Origin: a virus
Taxonomy: Duplodnaviria; Heunggongvirae; Uroviricota; Caudoviricetes
Reading direction: 5' to 3' (one strand)
DNA: 64,000 nucleotides
IMG/VR virus record: IMGVR_UViG_2938655777_000006
Coordinates: 80,983 to 144,982 of that record
A program made the position numbers and the translations under genes. The notes beneath the pieces are model-generated. The model made no database searches, was not told the DNA's origin, and saw only the letters and a list, made by a program, of their open reading frames with translations. Positions within the stretch are counted from its first letter, which is position 1. Each line of letters opens with the position of its first letter. Of this stretch, positions 19,345-64,000 are shown piece after piece.

Positions 19345-19950
19345 TTGGCTGAACGTTTATTAAAATGCCCCATATGCGGACAGTATGGGCGCAAAGTGGA
19401 CATGATTAGAGAAACAGATAAGCGGCATTACCATAGAGAATACTGTCATGAGAAATGGAAAAGGGAAAGAATTTTTAAACGAAAAGAGCAAGAGGAATTA
19501 GATTCGCTAACAGACACCATAGTAAAGATACATAAGCTACAAGGCAGGTACTCTGTACCTAAAACTTTTTATCCATTTATTCAAGACTTGAGAAATGATT
19601 CGGTGTTATTTGGTAGGTTGGATAAAAAGTATAAACAAGGAACTTCATATGAAGTAATCAAAAATACATATGAGTATTGTTCTGAAAAGATAGAGTGGGC
19701 TAGAGGGAATAAAGAATTTAAAAACTTAATGGCTGAATTAAAATATTGCTTTGCAATAGTAAAGAACAACATTGAGAACTCCATTAGAGCAAGTAGACAA
19801 ACTCAGCGAAACCAAGTTGAGTCTGAAGCATTAACTAAGCATATAGAAGCAATGAGTGATGTCCATGATAAAATAACTAAGATTCAAATTAGCAATGTAG
19901 CAACAAATGATGAGTCTGACCAGATTGATGTTACAACACTGTTTGATTGA
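19345..19950 (+). CDS. Zn-ribbon protein (possible helicase-associated/loader; inference)
   Basis: N-terminal CPICGQYG...HYHREYCH; TTG start after taaaGGAGGTGAtaag; immediately upstream of helicase. Confidence 0.45.
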   Translation: MAERLLKCPICGQYGRKVDMIRETDKRHYHREYCHEKWKRERIFKRKEQEELDSLTDTIVKIHKLQGRYSVPKTFYPFIQDLRNDSVLFGRLDKKYKQGTSYEVIKNTYEYCSEKIEWARGNKEFKNLMAELKYCFAIVKNNIENSIRASRQTQRNQVESEALTKHIEAMSDVHDKITKIQISNVATNDESDQIDVTTLFD

Positions 19951-21493
19951 GGAGGGCGATAACATTTCTGACGTAATATCTACAATTGAAGACATCTCTA
20001 CTGAAACGTTAGTGGTGGGAAGCTTTTATTTGAACCCTGATTTACTTTTAGACTATAGCGAAGTAATTAAATCAAAGTATGATTTTAATCAGCCAACGGC
20101 TAGGTTTATGTATGATTCATTACTTGATTTATATAGCCAACATGCAGGAACAGAAATAAATGAAGTAAAAATAAATATTTATATGAATTCAAATGATGAG
20201 CGAAAAAAGAAGTATGACTATTTGAAAGGCTATTCATACATAGATAGAATTACGAAGATTGTTGATTTGGATGATTTCCCTGTTTACTATGAAAAACTTA
20301 AAAAATTCTCTCTTCTTAGAGAGTTTGAGCGAAAAGGATTCCCAGTCCAAAAGTTAATGGACAGAAAAGATTTTGACAAGATTGGGACTGAAGACATTAT
20401 TAAAGGAATGGAGTATCAGATCAACACCATCGGTACAGTGATTGGTGGAGTCGAAGATAGTGTTATTTTGGGTCACAACATGCCTGAAAAGATTGAAGAA
20501 TGGAAGTTGGCTCCAGATGTGGGCATACCGATACCTTTTGAGATAATCAACACATTGCTACGTGGACTTAGAAGGAAAAAGTTTAATCTTTTTGGAATGC
20601 ACAGTGGATGTGGTAAGAGTCGTACTACAAGTAAAATTGCTTGTTATCTAGGTATTAAGTTGAAAATTCCTGTGTTGGTGCTAGTTAATGAACAGGATGA
20701 AAATGAATGGTTAGGTATGCAGATCAGCAGCGTTCTGAACAATCCTGAGTTTGGATTCGATATTCAAATGAAACGAAGGGGTATCGACGGAATTGATGAA
20801 ACGAAGATTGTAACTGGAACACTGACTGAGGACGAAGAAGAGATTGTTAAGGAAGCAGCCCGATACATAAAAGAGAACAGTAAAATCTATTTTTTAGAAT
20901 TAAATAAGTACGATGAAAATACACTCAAGCGACAAATCAAAAGACACAAGCTAAGAAATTGTCAGTTAATAATTTATGACACAATGAAAGCACCAGATCA
21001 TGATTGGATGACTTTCGTAAGAACTGCTGACATGCTTAAAGAGGTAGCAAGCACTGAAGACATTCCTGTTTGGTCTACTTTTCAATTGACTGACGACAGT
21101 TTGTTTAATGATATGTTGACAAGCCAAGCTATTGCTAATGGTAAGCATATTAAGCACGTAGCTGATGCGCTAATGATGGCTAAACCAATACCTAGGGATC
21201 AGTATGATAAGTTTGTGATATATAATCCTAACGATCCTTTTCTTGGCGAGTCTACAACACAATTAGAAATACATACAAACTATTATATGGTTGTTATTGA
21301 TAAAAACCGTGGCGGCAAGGACAAGGATATCTTATGCTTTGAGGTCGATAAAGGTAAAAATATATGGATTGAGAGGGGCTATCTTGTACCTTCTGAAAAC
21401 GAGAAGGAATTAAAACAACTCAAAAAAGAGAGCAAAAAGCTTAAAACAGAAAAGCAGGTCAAGGATTTGAAAAAGGCACTTAACAAAGAGTGA
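19907..21493 (+). CDS. DnaB-like replicative DNA helicase
   Basis: Walker A FGMHSGCGKSRTT, DnaB C-terminal RecA-like domain; start ambiguous (ATG 19907 overlaps previous gene by 44 nt without SD; in-frame ATT 19964 lies 8 nt after GGAGG). Confidence 0.6.
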   Translation: MMSLTRLMLQHCLIEEGDNISDVISTIEDISTETLVVGSFYLNPDLLLDYSEVIKSKYDFNQPTARFMYDSLLDLYSQHAGTEINEVKINIYMNSNDERKKKYDYLKGYSYIDRITKIVDLDDFPVYYEKLKKFSLLREFERKGFPVQKLMDRKDFDKIGTEDIIKGMEYQINTIGTVIGGVEDSVILGHNMPEKIEEWKLAPDVGIPIPFEIINTLLRGLRRKKFNLFGMHSGCGKSRTTSKIACYLGIKLKIPVLVLVNEQDENEWLGMQISSVLNNPEFGFDIQMKRRGIDGIDETKIVTGTLTEDEEEIVKEAARYIKENSKIYFLELNKYDENTLKRQIKRHKLRNCQLIIYDTMKAPDHDWMTFVRTADMLKEVASTEDIPVWSTFQLTDDSLFNDMLTSQAIANGKHIKHVADALMMAKPIPRDQYDKFVIYNPNDPFLGESTTQLEIHTNYYMVVIDKNRGGKDKDILCFEVDKGKNIWIERGYLVPSENEKELKQLKKESKKLKTEKQVKDLKKALNKE

Positions 21494-21511
21494 GTCAAGA
21501 GGTGATATAAA

Positions 21512-22549
21512 ATTGATGCTCAAACTTTAAAAGAAAACATAATAAGAGACAATAAAGTTGCAGATATTTTAACATCTCTCGGTTGTCACATTAATGATAG
21601 GATGTCTACCCATGGTGAAATAAGATCGACAAGGCCAGGAGGAGATAATCCTTCTAGCCTTCAGGTTTTTACTGACACTTTACTTGTAAATTGCTACACT
21701 AATCCTCTTCCCAAACTAGGGAGTGGGCATCCAGACATCATAACACTCGTTCAGCATTATAAGGATATCTCGTTTTCAAAGGCCATGTACTATATCTGTG
21801 AAGTTTGTGGATATAGTTACTACGCTGATTACAAACATACAAAAGTAGAAATAGATCCATGTCTTCAGTTCCTAGATTCAATAGAACCAAAGACCGAAGC
21901 TTACGATGAAGTCCCATTGAGAAAAGTAGATGATACTGTTCTGAACTCTTACATAGCTATCCCCAATAAACTATTTCTTGATGAAGGAATAAATTACGAA
22001 ACACAGAGATTGTTCGAAGTCGGGTATTCTCTTAGGGATAACTGTATAACAATACCGATCAGAGATGAGTTAGGAACGCTCGTTGGGGTCAAAGGAAGAA
22101 CTACGCTTGATTATAAAACATTAAAAACGTCGAAGTATTGGTTCCCTATACCTACCCCAAAGAGCCAAATACTATACGGTTTAGATAAGAGTTACGATCA
22201 CATCAAAAAGGCTGGCAAAGTAATTGTGTGGGAAGCTGAGAAGAGTGTCCAGAAGGCGTGGAGCTATGGTATTAAGCATACTGTGAGTGTTGGTGGACAT
22301 GAACTGAGCAAAACACAGGTTTTGAAGCTTGAACGTTTGGGGGTTGAGGTAATATTGGCTTTTGATAACAACATAAGCGCTTCTGATCTAAAAGAAGAGG
22401 CAAGTAAATTTGTCATTAGAGATAATGTTTATTGTATTTTAGCGCATAAAAACAGAAATATTCTTGAAGAGAAAGACGCTCCTATAGACAAAGGGATAGA
22501 CTTTTTTATGACATTAATGAACGAAGAAAAATACAAAATTCCTGTCTGA
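21512..22549 (+). CDS. DnaG-like DNA primase
   Basis: TOPRIM-like VIVWEAEKS / ILAFDNN; N-terminal Zn-finger-like LGCH...HGE lies upstream of the first ATG (21602) in a frame open from 21506 with no canonical start; SD GAGGTGA + 6 nt + ATT 21512. Confidence 0.5.
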   Translation: MDAQTLKENIIRDNKVADILTSLGCHINDRMSTHGEIRSTRPGGDNPSSLQVFTDTLLVNCYTNPLPKLGSGHPDIITLVQHYKDISFSKAMYYICEVCGYSYYADYKHTKVEIDPCLQFLDSIEPKTEAYDEVPLRKVDDTVLNSYIAIPNKLFLDEGINYETQRLFEVGYSLRDNCITIPIRDELGTLVGVKGRTTLDYKTLKTSKYWFPIPTPKSQILYGLDKSYDHIKKAGKVIVWEAEKSVQKAWSYGIKHTVSVGGHELSKTQVLKLERLGVEVILAFDNNISASDLKEEASKFVIRDNVYCILAHKNRNILEEKDAPIDKGIDFFMTLMNEEKYKIPV

Positions 22550-26537: not shown

Positions 26538-26624
26538 ATTGGTGAAAGGAGTGATTCAACCATAGTTTGGAAGCAAAAGCAACCTAAAATTCCGTTTGAG
26601 TCTTACGACAATACATATAGTAAG

Positions 26625-28199
26625 TTGGCTAAAATTAATGGGATTGAAGATATTGATCAATTTCTCAATCCATTATCGAATGTGATATGCGATTCATATT
26701 TACTTAAAAATATTGATGCATTAGTAACCCGAATTATTTTGGCAATACGCAACCATGAAACAATCACAATATCAGGAGATCCTGATTTTGACGGGGCAAC
26801 ATCGCTAGTAGAACTGTACAAGTACCTTAAAAATTTCACAGACGATGTACATTATGTATGCAATGAACGAAGCGAAGGTCACTCGATCGATAATTTAATT
26901 GATCAAATTCCTAAACGAACAAAGTTGTTTATTGCTGTAGATAGTTCAAGTAATGATACAGAATCGATGAAGGCATTGGTTGATAAAGGTATTGACTGCT
27001 TAATTATTGATCATCACACCATTACTAACGATAATCCCTATGCGATTATAGTGAATCCTCAGCAAGAAGGATGTAAATATCTAAATAAAAATGCTTGTGG
27101 TGGATTACTTGTGTTCAAAGTTTGCGAGGTAATTGATGATTACATGAATACACATTATGCACATCAATTATCTGACTTGCCGGGATTTTCATTGATGGCA
27201 GACATGATGTCAATGATGGAGTTAGAGAATAGATATTTTGCGAAACTATCCTTGAAGGGATTACGACATGCAGGATTAAAAGCGCTATTTTCAGCTATGA
27301 ACTTTGACTTAAGCAACCTTTCTGCGACAGACTTTCTTTATGGTGTAAGCCCTGCTGTTACGGCAGCTACAAGAGCAGATAATATTCAATTAGCAATAGA
27401 CTTCTTAATGTGTGATGAAGACTCACCAGAGATTAAAACAATAGTAAAAGAATTGATCAAGTTAAATGAAAATCGTAAAGTAATCCAAACTGAAGCATTA
27501 GTTAGATTGAAGTCCTTGGTTAATGAAAACGACAAAGTTGTTATTGTTATTGATCATACTCTTGGAAAAGGGATGAATGGACTGGTGGCACAAGAACTGT
27601 CCAGAACATATAGTAGGCCAGCAATTGTACTTGGGAATGGAGACAGTGAAGATACATATGCAGGAAGCTTTCGAGGTTTAGAAGATTTTTCAATGTTAGA
27701 ACTATTAAATAGTTGTAAAAGCGTTAATTATGCGGCTGGACATGATGCTGCTGGTGGAATTCAATTACTCAAAAATAATATTGATGCATTACGCGAAGAA
27801 CTAAATGAAAAATTGAGGAACTTTGTTGCAGATAACTCTATATATTATGATCTTGACTTCGATCTAACAGAGGTAAATGAAAACTTAATTAATTATTTAT
27901 CAGAATTTTATCGTATTTCAGGCAACCAGTTCAAACAAGGTAAATTTCTCATAAAAGGTCTATTTGTATCAGATAAGAAGTTGATGGGTAAATCCAACAA
28001 CACAGTTAAGATTGACTGCGACAAGCTTCAGCTTATGAAGTTTAAGACTGACGTAGATTACTATAAAAGTGTTCCAGTCTTTAGTGAGATAGAAGCAATT
28101 GGAACGTTAAATATAAATGTATGGAAAGTTTACAGACCAAAATTCAAAGTTACTAAAACACTCCAATTATTTATAGAAGAATACAGAGAAAATAATTAA
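26625..28199 (+). CDS. RecJ-like DHH-family single-strand DNA exonuclease/phosphoesterase
   Basis: DHH motifs DPDFDGATS, LIIDHH, and DHHA1 AAGHDAAGG; TTG start after gaaAGGAGTGA... region. Confidence 0.6.
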   Translation: MAKINGIEDIDQFLNPLSNVICDSYLLKNIDALVTRIILAIRNHETITISGDPDFDGATSLVELYKYLKNFTDDVHYVCNERSEGHSIDNLIDQIPKRTKLFIAVDSSSNDTESMKALVDKGIDCLIIDHHTITNDNPYAIIVNPQQEGCKYLNKNACGGLLVFKVCEVIDDYMNTHYAHQLSDLPGFSLMADMMSMMELENRYFAKLSLKGLRHAGLKALFSAMNFDLSNLSATDFLYGVSPAVTAATRADNIQLAIDFLMCDEDSPEIKTIVKELIKLNENRKVIQTEALVRLKSLVNENDKVVIVIDHTLGKGMNGLVAQELSRTYSRPAIVLGNGDSEDTYAGSFRGLEDFSMLELLNSCKSVNYAAGHDAAGGIQLLKNNIDALREELNEKLRNFVADNSIYYDLDFDLTEVNENLINYLSEFYRISGNQFKQGKFLIKGLFVSDKKLMGKSNNTVKIDCDKLQLMKFKTDVDYYKSVPVFSEIEAIGTLNINVWKVYRPKFKVTKTLQLFIEEYRENN

Positions 28200-40324: not shown

Positions 40325-40366
40325 TACATAGCATTTCAGATAAAACAGTTCTTTTACGCAGACCAA

Positions 40367-42562
40367 ATGGAGATGATACGTACGCAAGTTACTAAAAGAG
40401 ATGGTTCAGTTGTTGCGTTTAATCAACAAAAGATTGTTGATGCTATTTTCAAAGCAATGAGTAGAACAAAAAAAGGTATTGATAAGCAATTAGCAGCCAA
40501 TGTCACCAATGAAGTTGTAGCAATACTTAACAATGTAGCTAACATAGACATTGAAGCTATCCAAGATGCAGTAGTAGATGTTCTTATGCAAAGCGAGAGA
40601 AAAGATGTAGCCAAAGAGTACATAGGATATCGAGAAGTACGGAATCTGAAACGAAGAGAAAGAAGCAGCCTAGATAAAAAAGTATCTGGATTACTGGACA
40701 TGTCCAATGAGGAAGTATTAAAAGAAAACTCAAACAAAGATGGGCAGACGATTCCCACACAACGAGATCTTCTAGCAGGTATTATGGCAAAGGACTATGC
40801 TCAAGCTTATATGATGCCAAAACGAGTTGTTGAAGCTCACAATAGAGGAGATTTACATTTTCACGATCAAGATTATTCACCCTATTTTTCAATGACAAAC
40901 TGTATGTTGATTGATTTAAAGGGAATGTTGGAGAATGGATTTAAGCTTGGTAATGCTCAAATAGAAACTCCAAAATCTATTACAACAGCAGCGGCAGTTA
41001 CTGCACAAATTATTGCACAAGTAGCTAGTCATATCTACGGCGGTAACACAATTAATGAAATTGATAAGATCTTGGCTCCATATGTGAGAGCCTCATTTAT
41101 TAAACATTTTAGAGTGGGAATGAAATGGTTTGAGAGTAATCCAAACGATCATATACTTGAAAGCCAAGTGTATCCAGAAAGTTTAATCTTCAAGACCAGA
41201 TTTATAAAAGAATATAATTACGCGATTCAAATGACAGAAAAAGAGACATTGGATGCATTCCAATCACTTGAATATGAGATCAATACTTTGGTTTCCGCAA
41301 ATGGACAAACGCCTTTTTCAACCTTTGGTTTTGGGAGAGGGACAAGATGGGAAGAAAGACAGATACAAATTGCAATACTTAAAAATAGAATTAGAGGATT
41401 GGGCAAAGAAGGCAGTACTCCTATATTTCCAAAATTGATTTTTGCTCTAGAAGAAGGAGTTAATCTGAATCCCCAAGATATCAATTATGACATTAAGCAA
41501 CTAGCAATCAAATGTAGTACGTTGAGAATGTATCCTGATATCCTTTCAGTCCCAAAAGTTAAAGAAGTAACAGGTTCATTTAAGTTCCCGATGTCATGCC
41601 GCAGCTTTTTAAGTAAATACATAGAAAATAATGAAGAACTACATGATGGACGATTTAATATGGGGGTAGTGACTCTTAACTTGCCACGGATTGCAATTCG
41701 CGCAAAGAATAGTGAAGCAGAATTTTATAATCTATTGGATGATGAATTAGAAATTTGTAAAGAAGCGTTAATGTTTAGAATAAATCGCCTGAAGGGAGTC
41801 AAAGCAAAAGTTGCACCGATCCTCTATATGGAGGGAGCGGTAGGAGTCAGATTAAAGCCCGAAGATACAATTGACCAACTATTGGAAAATGACAGAGCAA
41901 GTATTTCACTTGGATACATAGGTCTACATGAAACCATATTGGCGTTATTTGAGAAACACATTTTTGATGACTCTTTTATGCATCAAAAAGGATTGAATAT
42001 TGTAAAATATCTTAGCGACAAAGCAAACAAATGGAAAAATGAAACTGGCTATGGGTTTAGTTTATATTCTACGCCAGCAGAATCGCTATGTTATCGTTTT
42101 TGTGAACTAGATAAGAACAAGTATGGTCTAATTAAAGGTGTTACTGACAAAGGATACTATACCAATTCGTTTCATTTAGATGTCAACAAAAAGGTAACGC
42201 CATTCGAAAAGATTGAGTTTGAAAAAGAATACCCTCAATATGCAAGTGGTGGTTTTATATCTTATTGTGAATTTGATTCATTAGTAAAAAATCCAGAAGC
42301 ATTAGAAGCTGTATGGGATTTTGCTTATGAGAGAGTACCGTACTTTGGAACAAATACTCCAGTAGACAAGTGTTATGAATGTGGGTATGAAGGAGAGTTT
42401 AAGGCAACAAATCAAGGCTTCAAGTGTCCAAATTGCAATAATAATGATCCCAAAACAAGTTCAGTCATAAGACGCTGCTGTGGTTATCTTTCAGAGCCTT
42501 CACAAAGACCTTTTAATAAAGGAAAGCAAAAAGAGGTTGTGTCGAGAGTGAAACATAACTAA
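40367..42562 (+). CDS. nrdD: anaerobic ribonucleoside-triphosphate reductase (class III RNR) NrdD
   Basis: N-terminal ATP-cone (IRTQVTKRDGSVVAFNQQKIVDAI), C-terminal Zn ribbon CYECGY...CPNCNN and glycyl-radical motif RRCCGYL. Confidence 0.7.
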   Translation: MEMIRTQVTKRDGSVVAFNQQKIVDAIFKAMSRTKKGIDKQLAANVTNEVVAILNNVANIDIEAIQDAVVDVLMQSERKDVAKEYIGYREVRNLKRRERSSLDKKVSGLLDMSNEEVLKENSNKDGQTIPTQRDLLAGIMAKDYAQAYMMPKRVVEAHNRGDLHFHDQDYSPYFSMTNCMLIDLKGMLENGFKLGNAQIETPKSITTAAAVTAQIIAQVASHIYGGNTINEIDKILAPYVRASFIKHFRVGMKWFESNPNDHILESQVYPESLIFKTRFIKEYNYAIQMTEKETLDAFQSLEYEINTLVSANGQTPFSTFGFGRGTRWEERQIQIAILKNRIRGLGKEGSTPIFPKLIFALEEGVNLNPQDINYDIKQLAIKCSTLRMYPDILSVPKVKEVTGSFKFPMSCRSFLSKYIENNEELHDGRFNMGVVTLNLPRIAIRAKNSEAEFYNLLDDELEICKEALMFRINRLKGVKAKVAPILYMEGAVGVRLKPEDTIDQLLENDRASISLGYIGLHETILALFEKHIFDDSFMHQKGLNIVKYLSDKANKWKNETGYGFSLYSTPAESLCYRFCELDKNKYGLIKGVTDKGYYTNSFHLDVNKKVTPFEKIEFEKEYPQYASGGFISYCEFDSLVKNPEALEAVWDFAYERVPYFGTNTPVDKCYECGYEGEFKATNQGFKCPNCNNNDPKTSSVIRRCCGYLSEPSQRPFNKGKQKEVVSRVKHN

Positions 42563-51916: not shown

Positions 51917-52489
51917 ATATGCTCAACTGGATACGCAAGTGATATTTACGAGGGAAAAGAAGTACACGCAAAAGATTTTATTTTGAAATGTACAAGAGCA
52001 TTTGTAGCAACCGATATGAGAGATGCGCCATTGGATAAAGAAATTCCAGCACTTATGTTCTCTCCATACCACAAAGAATCACTAGGTAGGGTTATGGAGA
52101 GATTGGATTATTATCAAAAAATGACACTTGAAGAAGCGAAAGTTTTTGCAGAAGAGGAGTTCTTAGATTCAGTTGCAACTTATAACGATAGACTTAAATC
52201 AAAGCGACTGCTAAGAAAGAGGTATGAAGTTCTACTAGATGAAGTGATCTTGTGGAATCCTCCAACAGCAGAGCACACAGAACTAAAGAAATTTTGTGTA
52301 AATCAGATTAAAGATAGTATTGAATTGGACTGCGATGAAAGATTCATAAGTGTTCCATCTGGAAAACACCAGAGGAGTATATCGCTAATGGAATTAAGTC
52401 TGCTCAAAATGATATTGAATACTACACAAGAAAGCATAAAGAAGAAGTTGAACGAGTCAATAAGTGTAATCAATGGGTACAAGAATTGA
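51917..52489 (+). CDS. hypothetical protein; frame open from 51917 with no canonical start before TTG 51983
   Basis: SD AGAGGAG (51904-10) + 6 nt + ATA 51917; SD-led ATG 51919 in +1 frame gives only MLNWIRK*; protein-like sequence continues upstream of TTG 51983. Confidence 0.35.
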   Translation: MCSTGYASDIYEGKEVHAKDFILKCTRAFVATDMRDAPLDKEIPALMFSPYHKESLGRVMERLDYYQKMTLEEAKVFAEEEFLDSVATYNDRLKSKRLLRKRYEVLLDEVILWNPPTAEHTELKKFCVNQIKDSIELDCDERFISVPSGKHQRSISLMELSLLKMILNTTQESIKKKLNESISVINGYKN

Positions 52490-59103: not shown

Positions 59104-59172
59104 GTATTACATTGTACGACACTGTTGAGCTACTGTCATACTTTGATACTCATTGTATTTGGAGGTAATATC

Positions 59173-60138
59173 ATGGCTTTAACTGTAGTGAAAAATTTAA
59201 GTGTGATTGATCTCGGATTTAGCTACACCAAGGGGAAAACAGGCAATACAATGTATCTTCAGCCTTCTATCTCCGGCGATGTTCAACCAATGTTTGAAGA
59301 AAACATCAAACCAAATGATTTTTTCTATAACGACGAATTATTTGTAGGGAATGTCGCCCTAAGGCACAGTGAGATTAAATATTTCACACTTAAAAATAAT
59401 AAGAGTGAAGCGATGACTTCTGACGTTTTGCTGAAAACTGGATTAGGATATTTAAATAAAAACAACCCATTTAATATGGTAACTGGACTACCTGTATTAT
59501 TCTATTTCAATCAAAAAAGTGATATGGAAAAGATGTTGGATCGAATAAACAGAGAGGATGCTTACAGCCTTAAGAAAGGCAGGGGAAATTATTCAGAAAT
59601 TAAACTTCATATAAATAAATATAAACTTGTTCCACAGGGATATGGCATAGCTATGGATTATCTGCTAGACAATAAAGGAAAGATCCAAAAAGTACATATT
59701 GCAAATAAAAAGGTATTGGTAATTGACTTAGGATTCTATACGTTAAACCTTTTGGGTTTAGATAAACTAGAAATAATGAAAGAATCAACAAGCCTTCTTT
59801 TGGGTGTTGAAAAGGCATATCAGTTATTGCGTAAGTACTTAATGAATGCTATAGGCAAGGCTCCAGCTATTTATGAACTGGACAAGTATGTGATAAGCGG
59901 TATATACGAAGGACGAAATATAAAACCATTAATAGCAAAAGCATTTAAATCACTAGCGATCCAAATTCAAAATGAGGTTGACGGACTAAATATAAATTTT
60001 GATTATTATCTAATTGGTGGAGGTGCAGCACATCAGATTTATAACACACTTAACTTCAAGAATAAAGTACTTTTCGATCAGCTTTCACAAATAAGAGGGT
60101 ATGAAAAAATTGGAGTTAGAGCATGGGGAAGAAACTAG
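59173..60138 (+). CDS. actin-like ATPase, ParM/Alp (StbA) family
   Basis: Phosphate-1 VIDLGFSYTK, phosphate-2 VLVIDLGFYTLNL, adenosine YYLIGGGAA, collinear with ParM; ATG 59173 7 nt after GGAGG. Confidence 0.55.
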   Translation: MALTVVKNLSVIDLGFSYTKGKTGNTMYLQPSISGDVQPMFEENIKPNDFFYNDELFVGNVALRHSEIKYFTLKNNKSEAMTSDVLLKTGLGYLNKNNPFNMVTGLPVLFYFNQKSDMEKMLDRINREDAYSLKKGRGNYSEIKLHINKYKLVPQGYGIAMDYLLDNKGKIQKVHIANKKVLVIDLGFYTLNLLGLDKLEIMKESTSLLLGVEKAYQLLRKYLMNAIGKAPAIYELDKYVISGIYEGRNIKPLIAKAFKSLAIQIQNEVDGLNINFDYYLIGGGAAHQIYNTLNFKNKVLFDQLSQIRGYEKIGVRAWGRN

Positions 60139-60401
60139 TTAGCGCAAGACTCAGAAACGGAAAGGATGATGACCTCAAAATAGCACTGAGTAAACTTCCT
60201 ATATATTATGATGAGAGCGACATCGTAAGAGAAGCGCTGAGACAGTTCTTATTTGGACACAAGGGTAGAAAACCTGAAATATTAGGGAGCAAAGTTGTAA
60301 TTGATGATGAACTTGTTGTAAATAAAGAAGAATTAGAAGAGGTTGATTTTATATCTCAATCAGATCTCGATAAAAGCTTAGATGATTTTATAGGGACTTG
60401 A
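60123..60401 (+). CDS. ribbon-helix-helix (CopG/Arc-like) DNA-binding protein, ParR/adaptor-like
   Basis: N-terminal beta-strand + helices KKLVSARLRNGKDDDLKIALSKL...SDIVREALRQFL; overlaps ParM-like stop. Confidence 0.45.
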   Translation: MGKKLVSARLRNGKDDDLKIALSKLPIYYDESDIVREALRQFLFGHKGRKPEILGSKVVIDDELVVNKEELEEVDFISQSDLDKSLDDFIGT

Positions 60402-60584
60402 GTAGGCTTCGGCCTACAATACATAAAATGAGGAAAGCTACAAGGATTAAAATCAAAATTAAACTGAATATCTGAGGTTCTAAGTGAATAAGTGTTATGT
60501 TAATGGCATTAAATATTTGATAAAACATATCAGCATGTCATAGCCCATATTAGGCATATACTGTCTCAACGAGAGGTGATTACT

Positions 60585-61559
60585 GTGGATGAAAACTCCA
60601 GAAGGATTACTGTTAATGAATCAAGAATTAATGTTGTCTTTAAAAGTCAAGAAGCTTATGAAACAATATCTGAGCAAAACGAAGAAGTTCCATTAACCAG
60701 TAATCATTACGAATCCGCAGCAGACATATTTAAGGATTTAGACGAAATGATTGGCCTTGAAAAGGTAAAAGATCTTGTGTATGAGATTTATGCATTGATA
60801 CAGGTGCAAAAACTTAGAAGTGAAGAAGGTTTGAAAAATAGTAGTCAGGTATACCATATGATATTCAAAGGAAATCCCGGTACAGGGAAGACGACAGTGG
60901 CAAGAATAGCTTCTAAATTGCTAAACAGAATGGGCATCCTTAGTAAAGGTCATCTGATTGAGGTGGAACGAGCAGACTTAGTTGGAGAATACATCGGTCA
61001 CACCGCACAAAAAACACGAGATCTTGTTAAGAAAGCTATGGGAGGAATCCTTTTTATCGATGAAGCCTACAGTTTGGCTAGGGGAGGTGATAAAGATTTT
61101 GGAAAGGAAGCAATAGACTGTCTTGTAAAAGTCATGGAGGATAGAAGTGATGATTTAATAATTATCCTTGCAGGCTATCCAGATGAGATGGGGATGTTCC
61201 TTAGAACAAATACTGGTCTTCCATCCCGGTTTCCAATACAAATAGATTTTCAGGATTACACAACAGATGAGTTAATGTTAATTGCAGTAAAGATGGCATA
61301 TGAAAAAGACTACAACATTACCTCTGATGCACTGATAAAACTAAGAGAAATAATTCAGATTGAGAAAGACTCAAGAAGTAATTTTAGTAATGCACGCTAT
61401 GTTCGTAACGTGATTGAAAAAGCGATTCGGCACCAAGCTGTCAGAATAATGAGTAGACGTGTAAAAATCTCTAAGCAAAATTTAATGGATATTTTGCCAC
61501 GAGATATATCAAATTCAAATATTGAAATGAATAAAAGAGAGTCTGTCATAATGCCATAA
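60585..61559 (+). CDS. AAA+ ATPase, SpoVK/CbbX-like
   Basis: Walker A GNPGTGKTT, Walker B ILFIDEAYSL, sensor/arginine-finger region; GTG 60585 5 nt after GAGAGGTGA. Confidence 0.6.
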   Translation: MDENSRRITVNESRINVVFKSQEAYETISEQNEEVPLTSNHYESAADIFKDLDEMIGLEKVKDLVYEIYALIQVQKLRSEEGLKNSSQVYHMIFKGNPGTGKTTVARIASKLLNRMGILSKGHLIEVERADLVGEYIGHTAQKTRDLVKKAMGGILFIDEAYSLARGGDKDFGKEAIDCLVKVMEDRSDDLIIILAGYPDEMGMFLRTNTGLPSRFPIQIDFQDYTTDELMLIAVKMAYEKDYNITSDALIKLREIIQIEKDSRSNFSNARYVRNVIEKAIRHQAVRIMSRRVKISKQNLMDILPRDISNSNIEMNKRESVIMP

Positions 61560-61576
61560 ATTAAAATGTATTTGTC

Positions 61577-61633
61577 CATAAAGAACAATCATACTTATTC
61601 AACTTAGCAGAAATCCATTGATTGTTCTTTATG
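61577..61633. repeat. perfect 15-bp inverted repeat (cataaagaacaatca / tgattgttctttatg) with 27-nt loop
   Basis: 18 nt after AAA-ATPase stop; no U-run; followed by strong SD AAGGAGGTGA (61651-60) and a 9-codon GTG uORF (61664-61693). Confidence 0.4.
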
Positions 61634-61752
61634 AAGCCTTATAAATATTAAAGGAGGTGAGAGGTGCAAAGTGTTCATATAGGATTTAATTAAAATCAAT
61701 ATTTTATAGGAAAGCGAGGTAAGCAACAATAGATAACTATGTAATTTATCAC

Positions 61753-64000
61753 TTGCATTCTGATGATAGTAATCCATCGACATCAATGGCTGTAGACTCA
61801 GTTACTAAATTTAAACAATACATAGACGCAGCAGAGCAAGCACAGATGAGTACAATTTGTTTTTCAGAACATGGGAACGTGTTTAACTGGGTTAAAAAGA
61901 AACAAACAATTGAAGAAAAAGGTATGAAATATATCCATGCCAACGAAGTGTATCTAACTGAACATAACGACAGAGAACGAGGATTAATTCGAGACAATTT
62001 CCACTACATGCTTATAGCCAAAAATTGGGACGGTGTAAAAGAGCTAAATCGATTAACCTCTATATCTAACAATAAAGAAGATGGGCATTATTATTACAAT
62101 CCAAGATTAACATTCGATGAGTTATTTAATACTTCAGACAATATCATTATGACATCTGCATGTTTAGCTTCACCACTATGGAGAGCAATAAAAAACGATA
62201 ACAAACAGATGTACAACCGACTAATGGATTTCTTCATGAAAAACAAACATCGGATGTTCTTTGAAATTCAGTATCATACACATCCTGAACAAAAGTCGTT
62301 TAATCAGCACTTATACAACATTTCTAAAGAGACTGGAATTCCACTTATTGCTGGAACGGATACACATGCACTTAATCAAGCTCATGCAGAAGCCAGAACC
62401 ATTCTTATGAGAGCAAAGGGTGCTACATATGGAGACGAAGACACTTTTGATTTAACATTCAAAACTTATCCCGAATTAGTTAAAATGTTTGAGGAACAAA
62501 ATTCAATACCAAGAAGTGCTTACCTTGAAGCAATTCATAATACGAATGTTATGGCGAACATGATAGAAGAATTTACGATCGATTCATCTCCAAAGTACCC
62601 AAAACTATATGATGATCCAGAAAAAGTTTTTAAGGAAAAGATAAATGTTGGTGTAGTTGAAAGAGGAGTAAACAAGTTTGAAGCAGAAAAGAAACATCGT
62701 TATTTTAAAAGAATTAGAGAAGAGTTTGATACATATAAGAAAGTTGGAGCAATTGATTATATGCTGCTTCAAAAAGATGTGGTCGATTGGGCGCATAAAA
62801 ATGGGATATATCAAGGATATGGACGTGGTTCTGTAAACGGAAGCTTGATCGCCTATCTATTGAAGATTACAGAGATGGATAGTATTAAGCATAAGCTAAA
62901 TTTCTTTCGCTTCCTGAATCCAGAGCGCATTTCACTCGCTGATATAGATTTAGACTGGCCTCCTTCAAAGAGACAAGATGTAATTGACTATGTAGCAACT
63001 ATTCCGGGTATTTACTTCTCTGAAATTATAACTTTTAATACGGTGGCTTTAAAAGGAGCAATAAGAGAAGTTGGTAGGGCGCTCAATATGGATTTATCAG
63101 TTGTAGATGGAATCGCAAAGGCTGTTTTTAAAAATGATAACAGGAAAGATGAAATCGATAAGCAATACCGCGAAAGCTATCCTGATTTATTTAAATATGT
63201 AGACTTGGTTCAAGGAGTTATTGTAAGCATAGGATCACATCCGTCTGGATATGTAGTTTCACCTATAAGTCTGCAAGATAATATAGGATTATGTTACACA
63301 AAAGAAAGTAAATATCCTGTGAGCCAGATTAATATGAAAGAGCTTGATAGCCTTAACTATGTCAAGCTTGATATTTTAGGTTTAGATAATATTGAAATCA
63401 TCAATGAAACTTGTAAGTTAGCGAATATTCCTCGTTTAGTCCCTGACAATATGAACGTAGATGACGAAGAAGTTTGGAGTTCTATTAGAGAGTCAGGCTT
63501 AGGAGTTTTTCAATGGGAGTCAACAAGTGCTGGAGCATATTTAAAAGACTTGTTGAGTCCTGAAACAATAAAAAGAATAAAAGAACAATACCCGAATTTC
63601 AGCTATATCCAATTGTTCTCAATTGGAAATGCTGCCATTCGTCCTTCTGGAGCTTCGTACAGAAATGATTTATCGCAGGGGATATTTAAAGATCATGGAT
63701 ATGATGCATTAAACGCTCATCTGAAGAGTACACTTGGATATCTTATATTTCAAGAATCAATAATGCAGTTCTTGGTAGACTTTTGTGACTTTACAATGCC
63801 TGAAAGCGATTCTGTTCGACGAGGGATGAGTAAAAAAGAGGGTACGGAAAAAGAGCTTCCAAAGATAAGAAAAAGGTTTATTGAGAAGCTAATGCGCGAT
63901 TACAGTGAGACCGAAGAAGCAGCTACTGCCGTCCTTGAACCATTTATTCAAGTTATCATAGATGCTAAAGATTATGGCTTCTCTGACAACCACTCAAACC
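61753..64000 (+). CDS. dnaE: DnaE-like DNA polymerase III alpha subunit (3'-partial, continues past window); start uncertain
   Basis: PHP YHLHSDDS, GRGSVNGSLIAYLL, catalytic ADIDLDW, GSHPSGYVVS, LDILGL, IFQESIMQ, RRGMSKK; frame opens at 61723, only in-frame candidates ATA 61729 (8 nt after GAGGT), ATT 61744, TTG 61753. Confidence 0.6.
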   Translation, partial: MHSDDSNPSTSMAVDSVTKFKQYIDAAEQAQMSTICFSEHGNVFNWVKKKQTIEEKGMKYIHANEVYLTEHNDRERGLIRDNFHYMLIAKNWDGVKELNRLTSISNNKEDGHYYYNPRLTFDELFNTSDNIIMTSACLASPLWRAIKNDNKQMYNRLMDFFMKNKHRMFFEIQYHTHPEQKSFNQHLYNISKETGIPLIAGTDTHALNQAHAEARTILMRAKGATYGDEDTFDLTFKTYPELVKMFEEQNSIPRSAYLEAIHNTNVMANMIEEFTIDSSPKYPKLYDDPEKVFKEKINVGVVERGVNKFEAEKKHRYFKRIREEFDTYKKVGAIDYMLLQKDVVDWAHKNGIYQGYGRGSVNGSLIAYLLKITEMDSIKHKLNFFRFLNPERISLADIDLDWPPSKRQDVIDYVATIPGIYFSEIITFNTVALKGAIREVGRALNMDLSVVDGIAKAVFKNDNRKDEIDKQYRESYPDLFKYVDLVQGVIVSIGSHPSGYVVSPISLQDNIGLCYTKESKYPVSQINMKELDSLNYVKLDILGLDNIEIINETCKLANIPRLVPDNMNVDDEEVWSSIRESGLGVFQWESTSAGAYLKDLLSPETIKRIKEQYPNFSYIQLFSIGNAAIRPSGASYRNDLSQGIFKDHGYDALNAHLKSTLGYLIFQESIMQFLVDFCDFTMPESDSVRRGMSKKEGTEKELPKIRKRFIEKLMRDYSETEEAATAVLEPFIQVIIDAKDYGFSDNHSN

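Follow-up and report, generated by a model that had tools for sequence, protein, structure and literature searches.

Confirmed natural near-cognate start codons are few, with two chromosomal AUU cases cited for Escherichia coli and four sites described in Staphylococcus aureus. The S. aureus genes infC (AUA), ccpN (AUA, conserved in Bacillus subtilis), citZ (AUA) and cvfC1 (AUU) carry extended Shine-Dalgarno sequences (SDs), and the sites of ccpN, citZ and cvfC1 reached about 10-30% of AUG expression in reporter assays, an effect described as modulated by initiation factor 3 (IF3) (PMC13009471). In E. coli, AUA, AUC and AUU starts were reported at 1-2% of AUG (bioRxiv 10.1101/063800). As cited in PMC5499595 and PMC13009471, the AUU starts of E. 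coli infC and pcnB limit or regulate synthesis, through IF3 autoregulation or translational limitation, and belong to a codon class against which IF3 discriminates. PMC5499595 also summarises T4 rIIB AUG-to-AUA and T7 0.3 AUG-to-ACG mutants, which keep residual initiation with intact SDs. Here, the DnaE-like DNA polymerase gene of a Paenibacillus prophage was analyzed. It lies at the end of a 64,000-nucleotide (nt) stretch of a Caudoviricetes record (IMGVR_UViG_2938655777_000006, positions 80,983 to 144,982), called the window in the following. The gene has no canonical start codon, and its translation most probably begins at ATA 61729 by SD-directed near-cognate initiation, as judged from the reading frame, the SD and the aligned starts of homologs.

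The gene start comprises the following features:

61720-61722, plus strand: in-frame TAA closing the polymerase frame upstream, part of a GGTAA kept in close relatives.
61710-61720, plus strand: SD GAAAG(C)GAGGT for the ATA start, with the core GAGGT at 61716-61720, from its predicted duplex with 16S.
61729-61731, plus strand: ATA, the putative initiation codon, from the alignment with homolog starts and from ATA or ACG in 12 Paenibacillus contexts.
61729-64000, plus strand: coding sequence (CDS) of the DnaE-like polymerase, extending past the window end, from the Pfam domains PHP, DNA_pol3_alpha and fingers, the alignment with Taq DnaE (2hpi) and the ratio of nonsynonymous to synonymous substitution rates (dN/dS).

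The product combines an N-terminal PHP domain containing an HxH motif with a pol III alpha catalytic domain and a fingers domain (PF02811, PF07733 and PF17657), as is characteristic of a C-family phage polymerase. Matches in the PDB were Taq DnaE, E. coli DnaE and PolC, and Taq DnaE is in register with the query, whose residue 41 corresponds to Taq residue 40. From 61723 the frame reads GCA ACA ATA(61729) GAT AAC TAT GTA ATT(61744) TAT CAC TTG(61753) CAT TCT GAT GAT AGT. The only possible start codons before the HxH motif are ATA 61729, ATT 61744 and TTG 61753, and the earliest in-frame ATG is at 61786. Between the upstream in-frame stop and the conserved N-terminal residues (frame TAA GCA ACA ATA) there is no ATG, GTG or TTG, and ATA 61729 is the sole near-cognate codon from that stop to the conserved codons 2-5. 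The SD is positioned 8 nt from this ATA, pairs with the 16S 3' end at a predicted -13.9 kcal/mol in a simple duplex model, and is unpaired in the minimum free energy fold. A preliminary description of this DNA had reported a DnaE-like polymerase of the SPbeta YorL-like module without a canonical start, and both the frame and the Pfam matches agree with it, as do all of its coordinates. It had also listed the ATA, 8 nt past GAGGT, among several options, and this codon emerged as the best-supported one.

Comparison with homologs decides where the start lies. A megablast search of 61400-64000 against the phage collection found no nucleotide-level relative, while a protein-level search with the polymerase matched 1437 phage records. 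A search with the first 324 residues returned mostly fragments or split genes of 300-550 amino acids (aa) with at most 73% identity and no close relatives. Close relatives were therefore gathered via related loci in genomes and IMG/VR, via members of protein clusters and via the contigs encoding them. The annotated CDS starts of four phages align exactly with ATA 61729:

PK-3 and FADO: ATG GAT AAC TAC GTA ATG TAC CAT, MDNYVMYH.
Kirov: ATG GAA AAT TAC GTA GTA TAT CAT, MENYVVYH.
vB_BcoS-136: GTG AAT AAT TAT ACA ATG TAT CAT, MNNYTMYH.
Window: ATA GAT AAC TAT GTA ATT TAT CAC, (I)DNYVIYH.

The homologs are colinear with the window protein from residue 1, and N3 and Y4 are invariant in a nine-sequence family alignment. 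In accordance with the preliminary description, no intron or intein could be identified. That description had called the initiation mechanism unclear and had named homologs with a canonical methionine at a frame-corrected position as speaking against this view. Such a methionine does in effect occur, but it maps onto the ATA and no frame correction is needed. The mechanism is thus not obscure, and splicing, an intein, RNA processing or an upstream open reading frame (uORF) are unneeded.

The same start was found in a series of Paenibacillus genomes. Among 12 distinct contexts, the codon is ATA in 6/12 and ACG in 6/12, and never ATG, GTG or TTG (0/12):

ATA contexts: the window (Paenibacillus sp. 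EKM208P); P. peoriae/P. polymyxa (L007, L224, L227); CMAA1739 (L225); PvR008 (L005); CMM36 (L226); IMG/VR 2617270876 (L009).
ACG contexts: P. barcinonensis (L006); FSL L8-0435 (L230); P. amylolyticus (L228); P. xylanexedens (L011, L229); P. taichungensis (L222); strain 1781tsa1 (L223).

In 10 of the 12 contexts, an in-frame stop closes the frame 2-6 codons ahead of the ATA or ACG. The two exceptions, L009 with an in-frame TTG and L223 with an in-frame ATG, have these codons upstream of the SD and without an SD of their own. In every context an SD (GAGGT, AAGGAG(A), GAAAGGAG or GGAGATGAT) is located 8-9 nt before the ATA or ACG. Variation in codons 2-5 (D N Y V) is nearly all synonymous (GAT/GAC, AAC/AAT, TAT/TAC, GTA/GTG/GTT, with one GCA), whereas the leaders of different clades are too divergent to be aligned up to codon 1, which places the coding boundary at codon 1. 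Since conservation begins there, ATT 61744, TTG 61753 and ATG 61786 are excluded as the sole start. The dN/dS of the polymerase was 0.03-0.07, and synonymous sites were saturated between the window and L095, L096 and L131; the polymerase is therefore functional and the genomes are independent. Because the absence of a canonical start recurs in 12 contexts from different Paenibacillus genomes, it is due neither to chance nor to sequencing error.

The polymerase is not the only replication gene with this design. The 65 long open frames of the window were scanned for near-cognate codons with a strong SD upstream of the first canonical start endowed with an SD, and four verifiable genes were flagged: the primase, a RecJ/DHH exonuclease, a DnaB-like helicase and the polymerase. 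The three further genes are:

19964-21493, plus strand: DnaB-like helicase, putative ATT start behind SD GAGGAGG at 19949-19955, from the SD and relatives.
21512-22549, plus strand: DNA primase, putative ATT start behind SD AAGAGGTGAT at 21497-21506, from the alignment with a homolog ATG and from relatives.
26562-28199, plus strand: RecJ/DHH-like exonuclease, putative ATA start behind SD GAAAGGAGTGAT at 26544-26555, from the SD and the alignment with a homolog ATG.

For the helicase, whose Pfam DnaB and DnaB_C matches are slightly below or at the cut-off, the SD duplex was calculated at -13.4 kcal/mol and the in-frame ATGs upstream have no SD. Its start codon is ATT, ATC or ATA at the aligned position in 11 relatives, and in 5 of these 11 an in-frame stop lies 4-14 codons upstream with no canonical codon in between. 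The primase frame contains a TGA two codons before ATT 21512. In the alignment this ATT falls on the start ATG of the Geobacillus virus E3 primase (MDANELKE versus (I)DAQTLKE), and it is kept in 7/7 relatives at 74-94% identity. The SD duplex of the exonuclease is at -16.1 kcal/mol, its ATA 26562 falls on the start ATG of the DHH protein of phage PK-3, and the codon is ATA in 10/13 and TTG in 3/13 relatives. In none of the relatives examined does an ATG occur at the aligned start of any of the four genes.

Several other starts of the window were noted alongside. In the anaerobic ribonucleotide reductase gene NrdD (40325-40400), ATG 40367 and ATG 40373 have no usefully spaced SD, and ACG 40382, which is kept in four relatives, lies 4 nt past GGAGATGAT (9 nt past its GGAG core). 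This arrangement resembles the polymerase design of the ACG clade, and the NrdD start is ambiguous. A 190-codon open reading frame (ORF) at 51917-52489 has an ATA directly behind an in-frame TGA, with SD GAGGAG, and its first in-frame ATG, without an SD, is 33 codons downstream; no Pfam match and no relatives were found for it. TTG starts are unusually common among the SD-endowed genes of the window (about 12-13 of 55).

In the wider phage DnaE family, 166 loci were sampled and reduced to 132 unique N-termini. Most of these homologs have ATG, GTG or TTG at codon 1 or at a neighbouring codon. Nine unique homologs, namely the window clade, L145, L081/L086 and L071, lack any canonical codon from the upstream stop to codon 3. 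About 12 further homologs, judged likely by eye, have ATA, ATT or ATC at the optimal distance from the SD, their sole canonical codon lying inside or upstream of the SD:

Likely near-cognate members: L009, L014, L035, L123, L030/80/41, L092/76/63, L142, L032.

Taken together, ATA, ATT, ATC or ACG stands at the SD-positioned start in about 21 of the 132 unique homologs (16%). A rough neighbour-joining (NJ) tree without support values distributes these starts over at least six separate lineages, and two of its clades mix ATA, ATT and ATC. The median SD duplex energy was -14.3 kcal/mol for non-canonical starts versus -9.85 kcal/mol for canonical ones (Mann-Whitney p = 2e-6), and the difference persisted with one value per lineage (p = 0.003). 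Stronger SDs at non-canonical starts are the compensation that would be expected if these starts are real and weak. TTG starts in the family have strong SDs, too (-14.7). Near-cognate starts throughout the module are observed for the Paenibacillus lineage only; the genes upstream of the polymerase in the other non-canonical lineages mostly have TTG or ATG starts. Among the gut-metagenome members L081/L086 and L092/L076/L063, the near-cognate start overlaps the upstream stop as ATAG or ATTAG, comparable to an ATGA overlap, and L081 has a run of seven A just past the start. Another feature of the family is that many homologs are called as proteins of 400-430 aa ending in ...NFFRFLNPxRxSLPD, just ahead of the catalytic IDLD motif. 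Their ends suggest split genes, with an intron or a homing-endonuclease insertion at that site, where the window polymerase is continuous.

In the mechanism proposed for the polymerase, the strong extended SD, located 8 nt upstream in an unstructured AU-rich stretch, would place the ATA into the peptidyl (P) site of the ribosome. There, the initiator formylmethionyl-tRNA (fMet-tRNA) would decode it with a third-position mismatch, giving a product that would begin with M-D-N-Y-V-I-Y-H-L-H, the N-terminus of the homologs with ATG starts. Since no tRNA genes were found in the window, it encodes no phage variant of the initiator tRNA. Near-cognate initiation would proceed at a low rate and be sensitive to IF3. 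It could thus act as a built-in attenuator, keeping replisome proteins low and possibly coupling them to the initiation stringency of the host. An attenuator is considered the most likely role because the helicase, primase and exonuclease starts are built alike and relatives retain the arrangement. We infer fMet-tRNA initiation at the ATA, the level of expression, the IF3 dependence and the adaptive value. The design may serve to hold replisome levels down or to keep these genes silent when prophage transcription is leaky.

Several observations weigh against this interpretation. Initiation at the ATA is predicted from sequence, and the adaptive part draws on conservation only. The polymerase SD of the window has a one-base bulge and does not have the start-proximal UGAU extension of the other three genes, and SD energy and spacing are crude measures. 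Some relatives have canonical codons nearby that might serve as starts: a GTG at codon 5 in L005 and L226, the SD-less TTG 7 codons upstream in L009 and the SD-less ATG 8 codons upstream in L223. In the family sample, the 12 likely members were classified by eye, and the automatic classifier had labelled several canonical starts as unclear. Furthermore, the E. coli 64-codon preprint (10.1101/063800) does not count ACG among the four near-cognates with 1-2% of AUG. Since ACG is expected to be a very poor start, the ACG clade would need very little polymerase or an extra helper.

The alternative that survives best is that initiation at the ATA depends on upstream translation or RNA processing, either by re-initiation from an upstream SD and mini-ORF, by translational coupling or by an mRNA 5' end created at a hairpin. 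This explanation is considered improbable. It concerns three elements of the leader:

61577-61633, plus strand: perfect 15-bp stem-loop with arms 61577-61591 and 61619-61633 and a 27-nt loop, from the inverted repeat and its fold.
61651-61693, plus strand: strong SD AAGGAGGTGA (61651-61660) and a 9-codon mini-ORF from GTG 61664 to TAA 61691-61693, MQSVHIGFN*.
61692-61706, plus strand: conserved non-coding motif AAAATCAATATTTTA, 22 nt before the start, in the window, L005, L009, L011, L222, L223, L225, L228 and L231.

The palindrome and the SD-driven mini-ORF had both been pointed out in front of the polymerase gene. Both are real, but a role in its start was not upheld, as they form an intergenic cassette that travels with the AAA-ATPase gene. 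The stem-loop begins 18 nt past the AAA-ATPase stop codon and is the sole strong perfect hairpin in the 64-kb window. RNA folding, proposed earlier as a check of the leader, gave a mixed result: the hairpin stands out, whereas the 246-nt leader as a whole folds no better than shuffles (z = -1.5). Every syntenic relative has a stable hairpin behind the AAA-ATPase stop codon. Its arms are those of the window in L225, L231 and L232, it carries two compensatory pair changes and one G-U in L005, and it is replaced by unrelated stems of 12-17 bp in L006, L011 and L223 and by a 6-bp stem in L222. That the position is conserved while the sequence turns over and compensates suggests a structural role, and a processing site or a 3'-end stabiliser would be plausible. 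An intrinsic (Rho-independent) terminator was rejected since the stem is AT-rich and has no U tract; the terminator scan found nothing, and no T-run follows the stem.

In favour of a dependence on upstream translation, the layout of hairpin, SD and start-stop recurs in L225 (around 300-312), L006, L011, L222 and L231 (minus strand, around 2946-2951), and start-stops in E. coli are known to be occupied by ribosomes (10.1101/520783). The SD behind the hairpin is kept in all these syntenic relatives while the downstream ORF varies: ATG TAA in L225, L231, L006 and L222, ATG TGA in L011, and GTG CAA in the window, where relatives have the start-stop. Moreover, the TAA of a 131-aa ORF in L007 overlaps codons 2-3 of the polymerase, ending at the 8th base of its ORF, and the window retains about 35 nt of the 3' end of this ORF. 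Beyond the window clade, the stop codon of the upstream gene often finishes close to the near-cognate start, from 18 nt ahead of its first base to 8 nt past it, a coupling geometry that includes ATAG and ATTAG overlaps. In the window, however, the nearest stops are those of the mini-ORF, 35 nt before ATA 61729, and of the nearest ORF of at least 50 aa (the AAA-ATPase), 169 nt before it, so that no stop lies within the few nucleotides typical of translational coupling. The mini-ORF peptide is not conserved among the relatives, unlike a regulatory leader peptide or uORF, which also argues against a dependence on re-initiation. L005 has the SD but no start codon. The mini-ORF cassette is absent in L007 and L009, and the ATA is kept without the cassette in L007, L009 and L226, including before a 98%-identical polymerase with an ATA start. 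Finally, re-initiation in E. coli decreased when IF3 was overexpressed (PMC2268962), so that it is not evidently exempt from IF3.

The clearest evidence on the cassette comes from L231 and L232 (IMG/VR 2922727739 and 2600255062), whose helicases are 99% and 98% identical to that of the window, respectively. There, the polymerase behind the same hairpin, SD, ATG-TAA and motif is of the YorL type (LHNHVDRGSN...), is not orthologous to that of the window and probably starts with TTG. Because the cassette precedes this TTG polymerase and is missing in relatives with an ATA start, it is not required for the ATA start. Judging by its distribution, the cassette belongs to the AAA-ATPase side of a mosaic junction, and it may still make a modest contribution to the ATA start by ribosome loading or re-initiation.

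The motif AAAATCAATATTTTA is found 20-45 nt before the polymerase start across otherwise divergent leaders, and it marks the junction at which the non-orthologous polymerase is swapped in (L231, L232). At zero mismatches it has a single copy in the window, and nothing systematic was found upstream of the other replication genes. A repeated promoter-like element was therefore rejected, and the motif could be a promoter, an operator or a recombination boundary. A scan for sigma-70-type promoters found none from the hairpin to the polymerase start. The genes at 59125-61559, upstream of the polymerase, encode an actin-like protein (ALP/ParM-type), a 92-aa protein and an AAA+ ATPase with a lid domain; they are syntenic in L005 and L006 and may represent a segregation or remodelling module.

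A second alternative is that translation starts downstream of the ATA, at ATT 61744, at TTG 61753 (the GenBank call) or at ATG 61786, with the codons before it untranslated. At codon 6, every relative indeed has ATT, ATC or ATA and the PK-3-type homologs have ATG, the NCBI pipeline PGAP picked ATC at codon 6 in P. taichungensis, and gene callers pick TTG 61753 or ATG 61786. Despite this, a downstream start is highly improbable. The SD is 23-24 nt away from codon 6 and even farther from TTG 61753 and ATG 61786. The synonymous changes in codons 2-5, free of indels and stops next to a completely diverged upstream sequence, show that these codons are conserved as protein, and the invariant N3 and Y4 are among them. 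As the preliminary description had rightly stated, a start at TTG 61753 would remove the first histidine of the PHP HxH motif, together with the preceding residues, and ATG 61786 would lose the entire motif.

Recoding, as a third alternative, would supply the N-terminus by a frameshift from ATG 61739 or from the SD-associated ATG of the ACG clade, by an intron or intein, or by RNA editing. There is an ATG TAA at 61739-61744 in the +1 frame, the ACG clade has a +1-frame ATG right behind AAGGAG, and many family members are split elsewhere, so that mobile insertions do occur in this polymerase family. Against this, the homologs are colinear from codon 1 without a gap, and no ORF in another frame has a start and SD that could feed the polymerase frame. 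ATG 61739 is lost in L009 (TAC GTT) and therefore merely reflects the Y-V codons read out of frame. Rfam had no hit above the gathering score on 61400-61900, the best being a plant microRNA model (E = 0.35). Recoding is thus given hardly any weight. That the ATA is a sequencing error or an inactivated ATG in a decaying prophage is practically negligible: a single G-to-A change would turn ATG into ATA and the element is a prophage in a draft genome, but the strong purifying selection with saturated synonymous sites, the intact ORF (1047-1063 aa), the ATA or ACG in independent contexts from different species and assemblies, and the three further genes with the same conserved pattern contradict both an error and a pseudogene.

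Near-cognate initiation at ATA 61729 has consequences for annotation. The GenBank polymerase (KAF6630684.1, 1049 aa) was called from TTG 61753 and is 8 residues short, the GenBank primase (315 aa) was called from ATG 21602 and is 30 residues short, and the GenBank exonuclease (524 aa) was called from TTG 26625 and is 21 residues short. Hence all three genes checked are too short in public records. Within the polymerase clusters, at least seven different N-termini have been annotated, most of them without the first catalytic histidine or the whole HxH motif. For P. taichungensis (L222 401-403, WP_413027940.1), the NCBI start is the ATC at codon 6 (MYHLH...), which is probably five codons too far downstream according to the alignment. 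Owing to near-cognate starts, about one sixth of the phage polymerase family is probably mis-started. Such annotations would be corrected if start calling were anchored in homology and admitted ATA, ATT, ATC and ACG behind strong SDs.

If the proposed starts are true, a single replication module would contain four of them, kept across divergence at the species level without a reversion to ATG. Weak initiation would then be under selection in an unusually clear natural example, and the prophage would offer a tractable system for near-cognate start function and IF3-dependent stringency. A further idea, which is possible but rather doubtful, is that the helicase, primase, exonuclease and polymerase of this prophage lineage constitute an "initiation-stringency regulon". 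Replisome synthesis would then depend on how strictly the host ribosome, or a phage-modified one, rejects near-cognate starts. This strictness would be set by IF3 activity, guanosine tetraphosphate (ppGpp), the nutrient state or a phage factor relaxing it. Leaky prophage transcription would yield almost no replisome, replication would be gated to a permissive cell state, and selection of this kind would also underlie the recurrent, independent evolution of ATA, ATT and ATC starts elsewhere in the phage DnaE family.

Among related replication modules, the comparison with SPbeta YorL proposed in the preliminary description was informative in part. The yorI-yorJ-yorK-yorL module comprises the same four functions (helicase, primase, RecJ-like exonuclease and DnaE-like polymerase), but yorL is annotated with TTG, and YorL is only a distant relative of the window polymerase, a true YorL-type polymerase replacing the window type in L231 and L232. 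As annotated, yorH, yorI, yorJ and yorL start with TTG, yorK with ATG and yorM with ATT (SPbeta L214 2043-6937). The SPbeta module is contiguous with TTG starts, whereas the window polymerase is located about 33 kb from RecJ. Since SPbeta uses TTG, weak starts seem to be a theme of this module, with the Paenibacillus lineage having gone furthest. A different form of control is found in T4, where the gp43 DNA polymerase represses its own synthesis by binding an RNA operator at a normal AUG. While gp43 works through a protein-bound operator, the window polymerase would be a case of a near-cognate codon.

The closest counterparts are the S. aureus sites, which share with the window polymerase a conserved non-canonical codon, AUA or AUU, behind a strong or extended SD spaced as in Firmicutes, and attenuated initiation as the expected effect. 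They differ in that the window has four phage replisome genes of this kind, that one clade uses ACG, that the starts are predicted here from sequence, and that the polymerase SD is extended 5' with a bulge, as opposed to the start-proximal UGAU. E. coli infC and pcnB are single host genes, and the window polymerase product is not an initiation factor. The T4 rIIB and T7 0.3 variants are defective laboratory mutants, whereas the codons of the Paenibacillus prophages are conserved wild type. A full-text literature search (DNA polymerase, phage, ATA start codon) returned no relevant report. The near-cognate mechanism itself is already known; what appears to be new is its use by four replisome genes in one phage lineage and its recurrence across the phage DnaE family.

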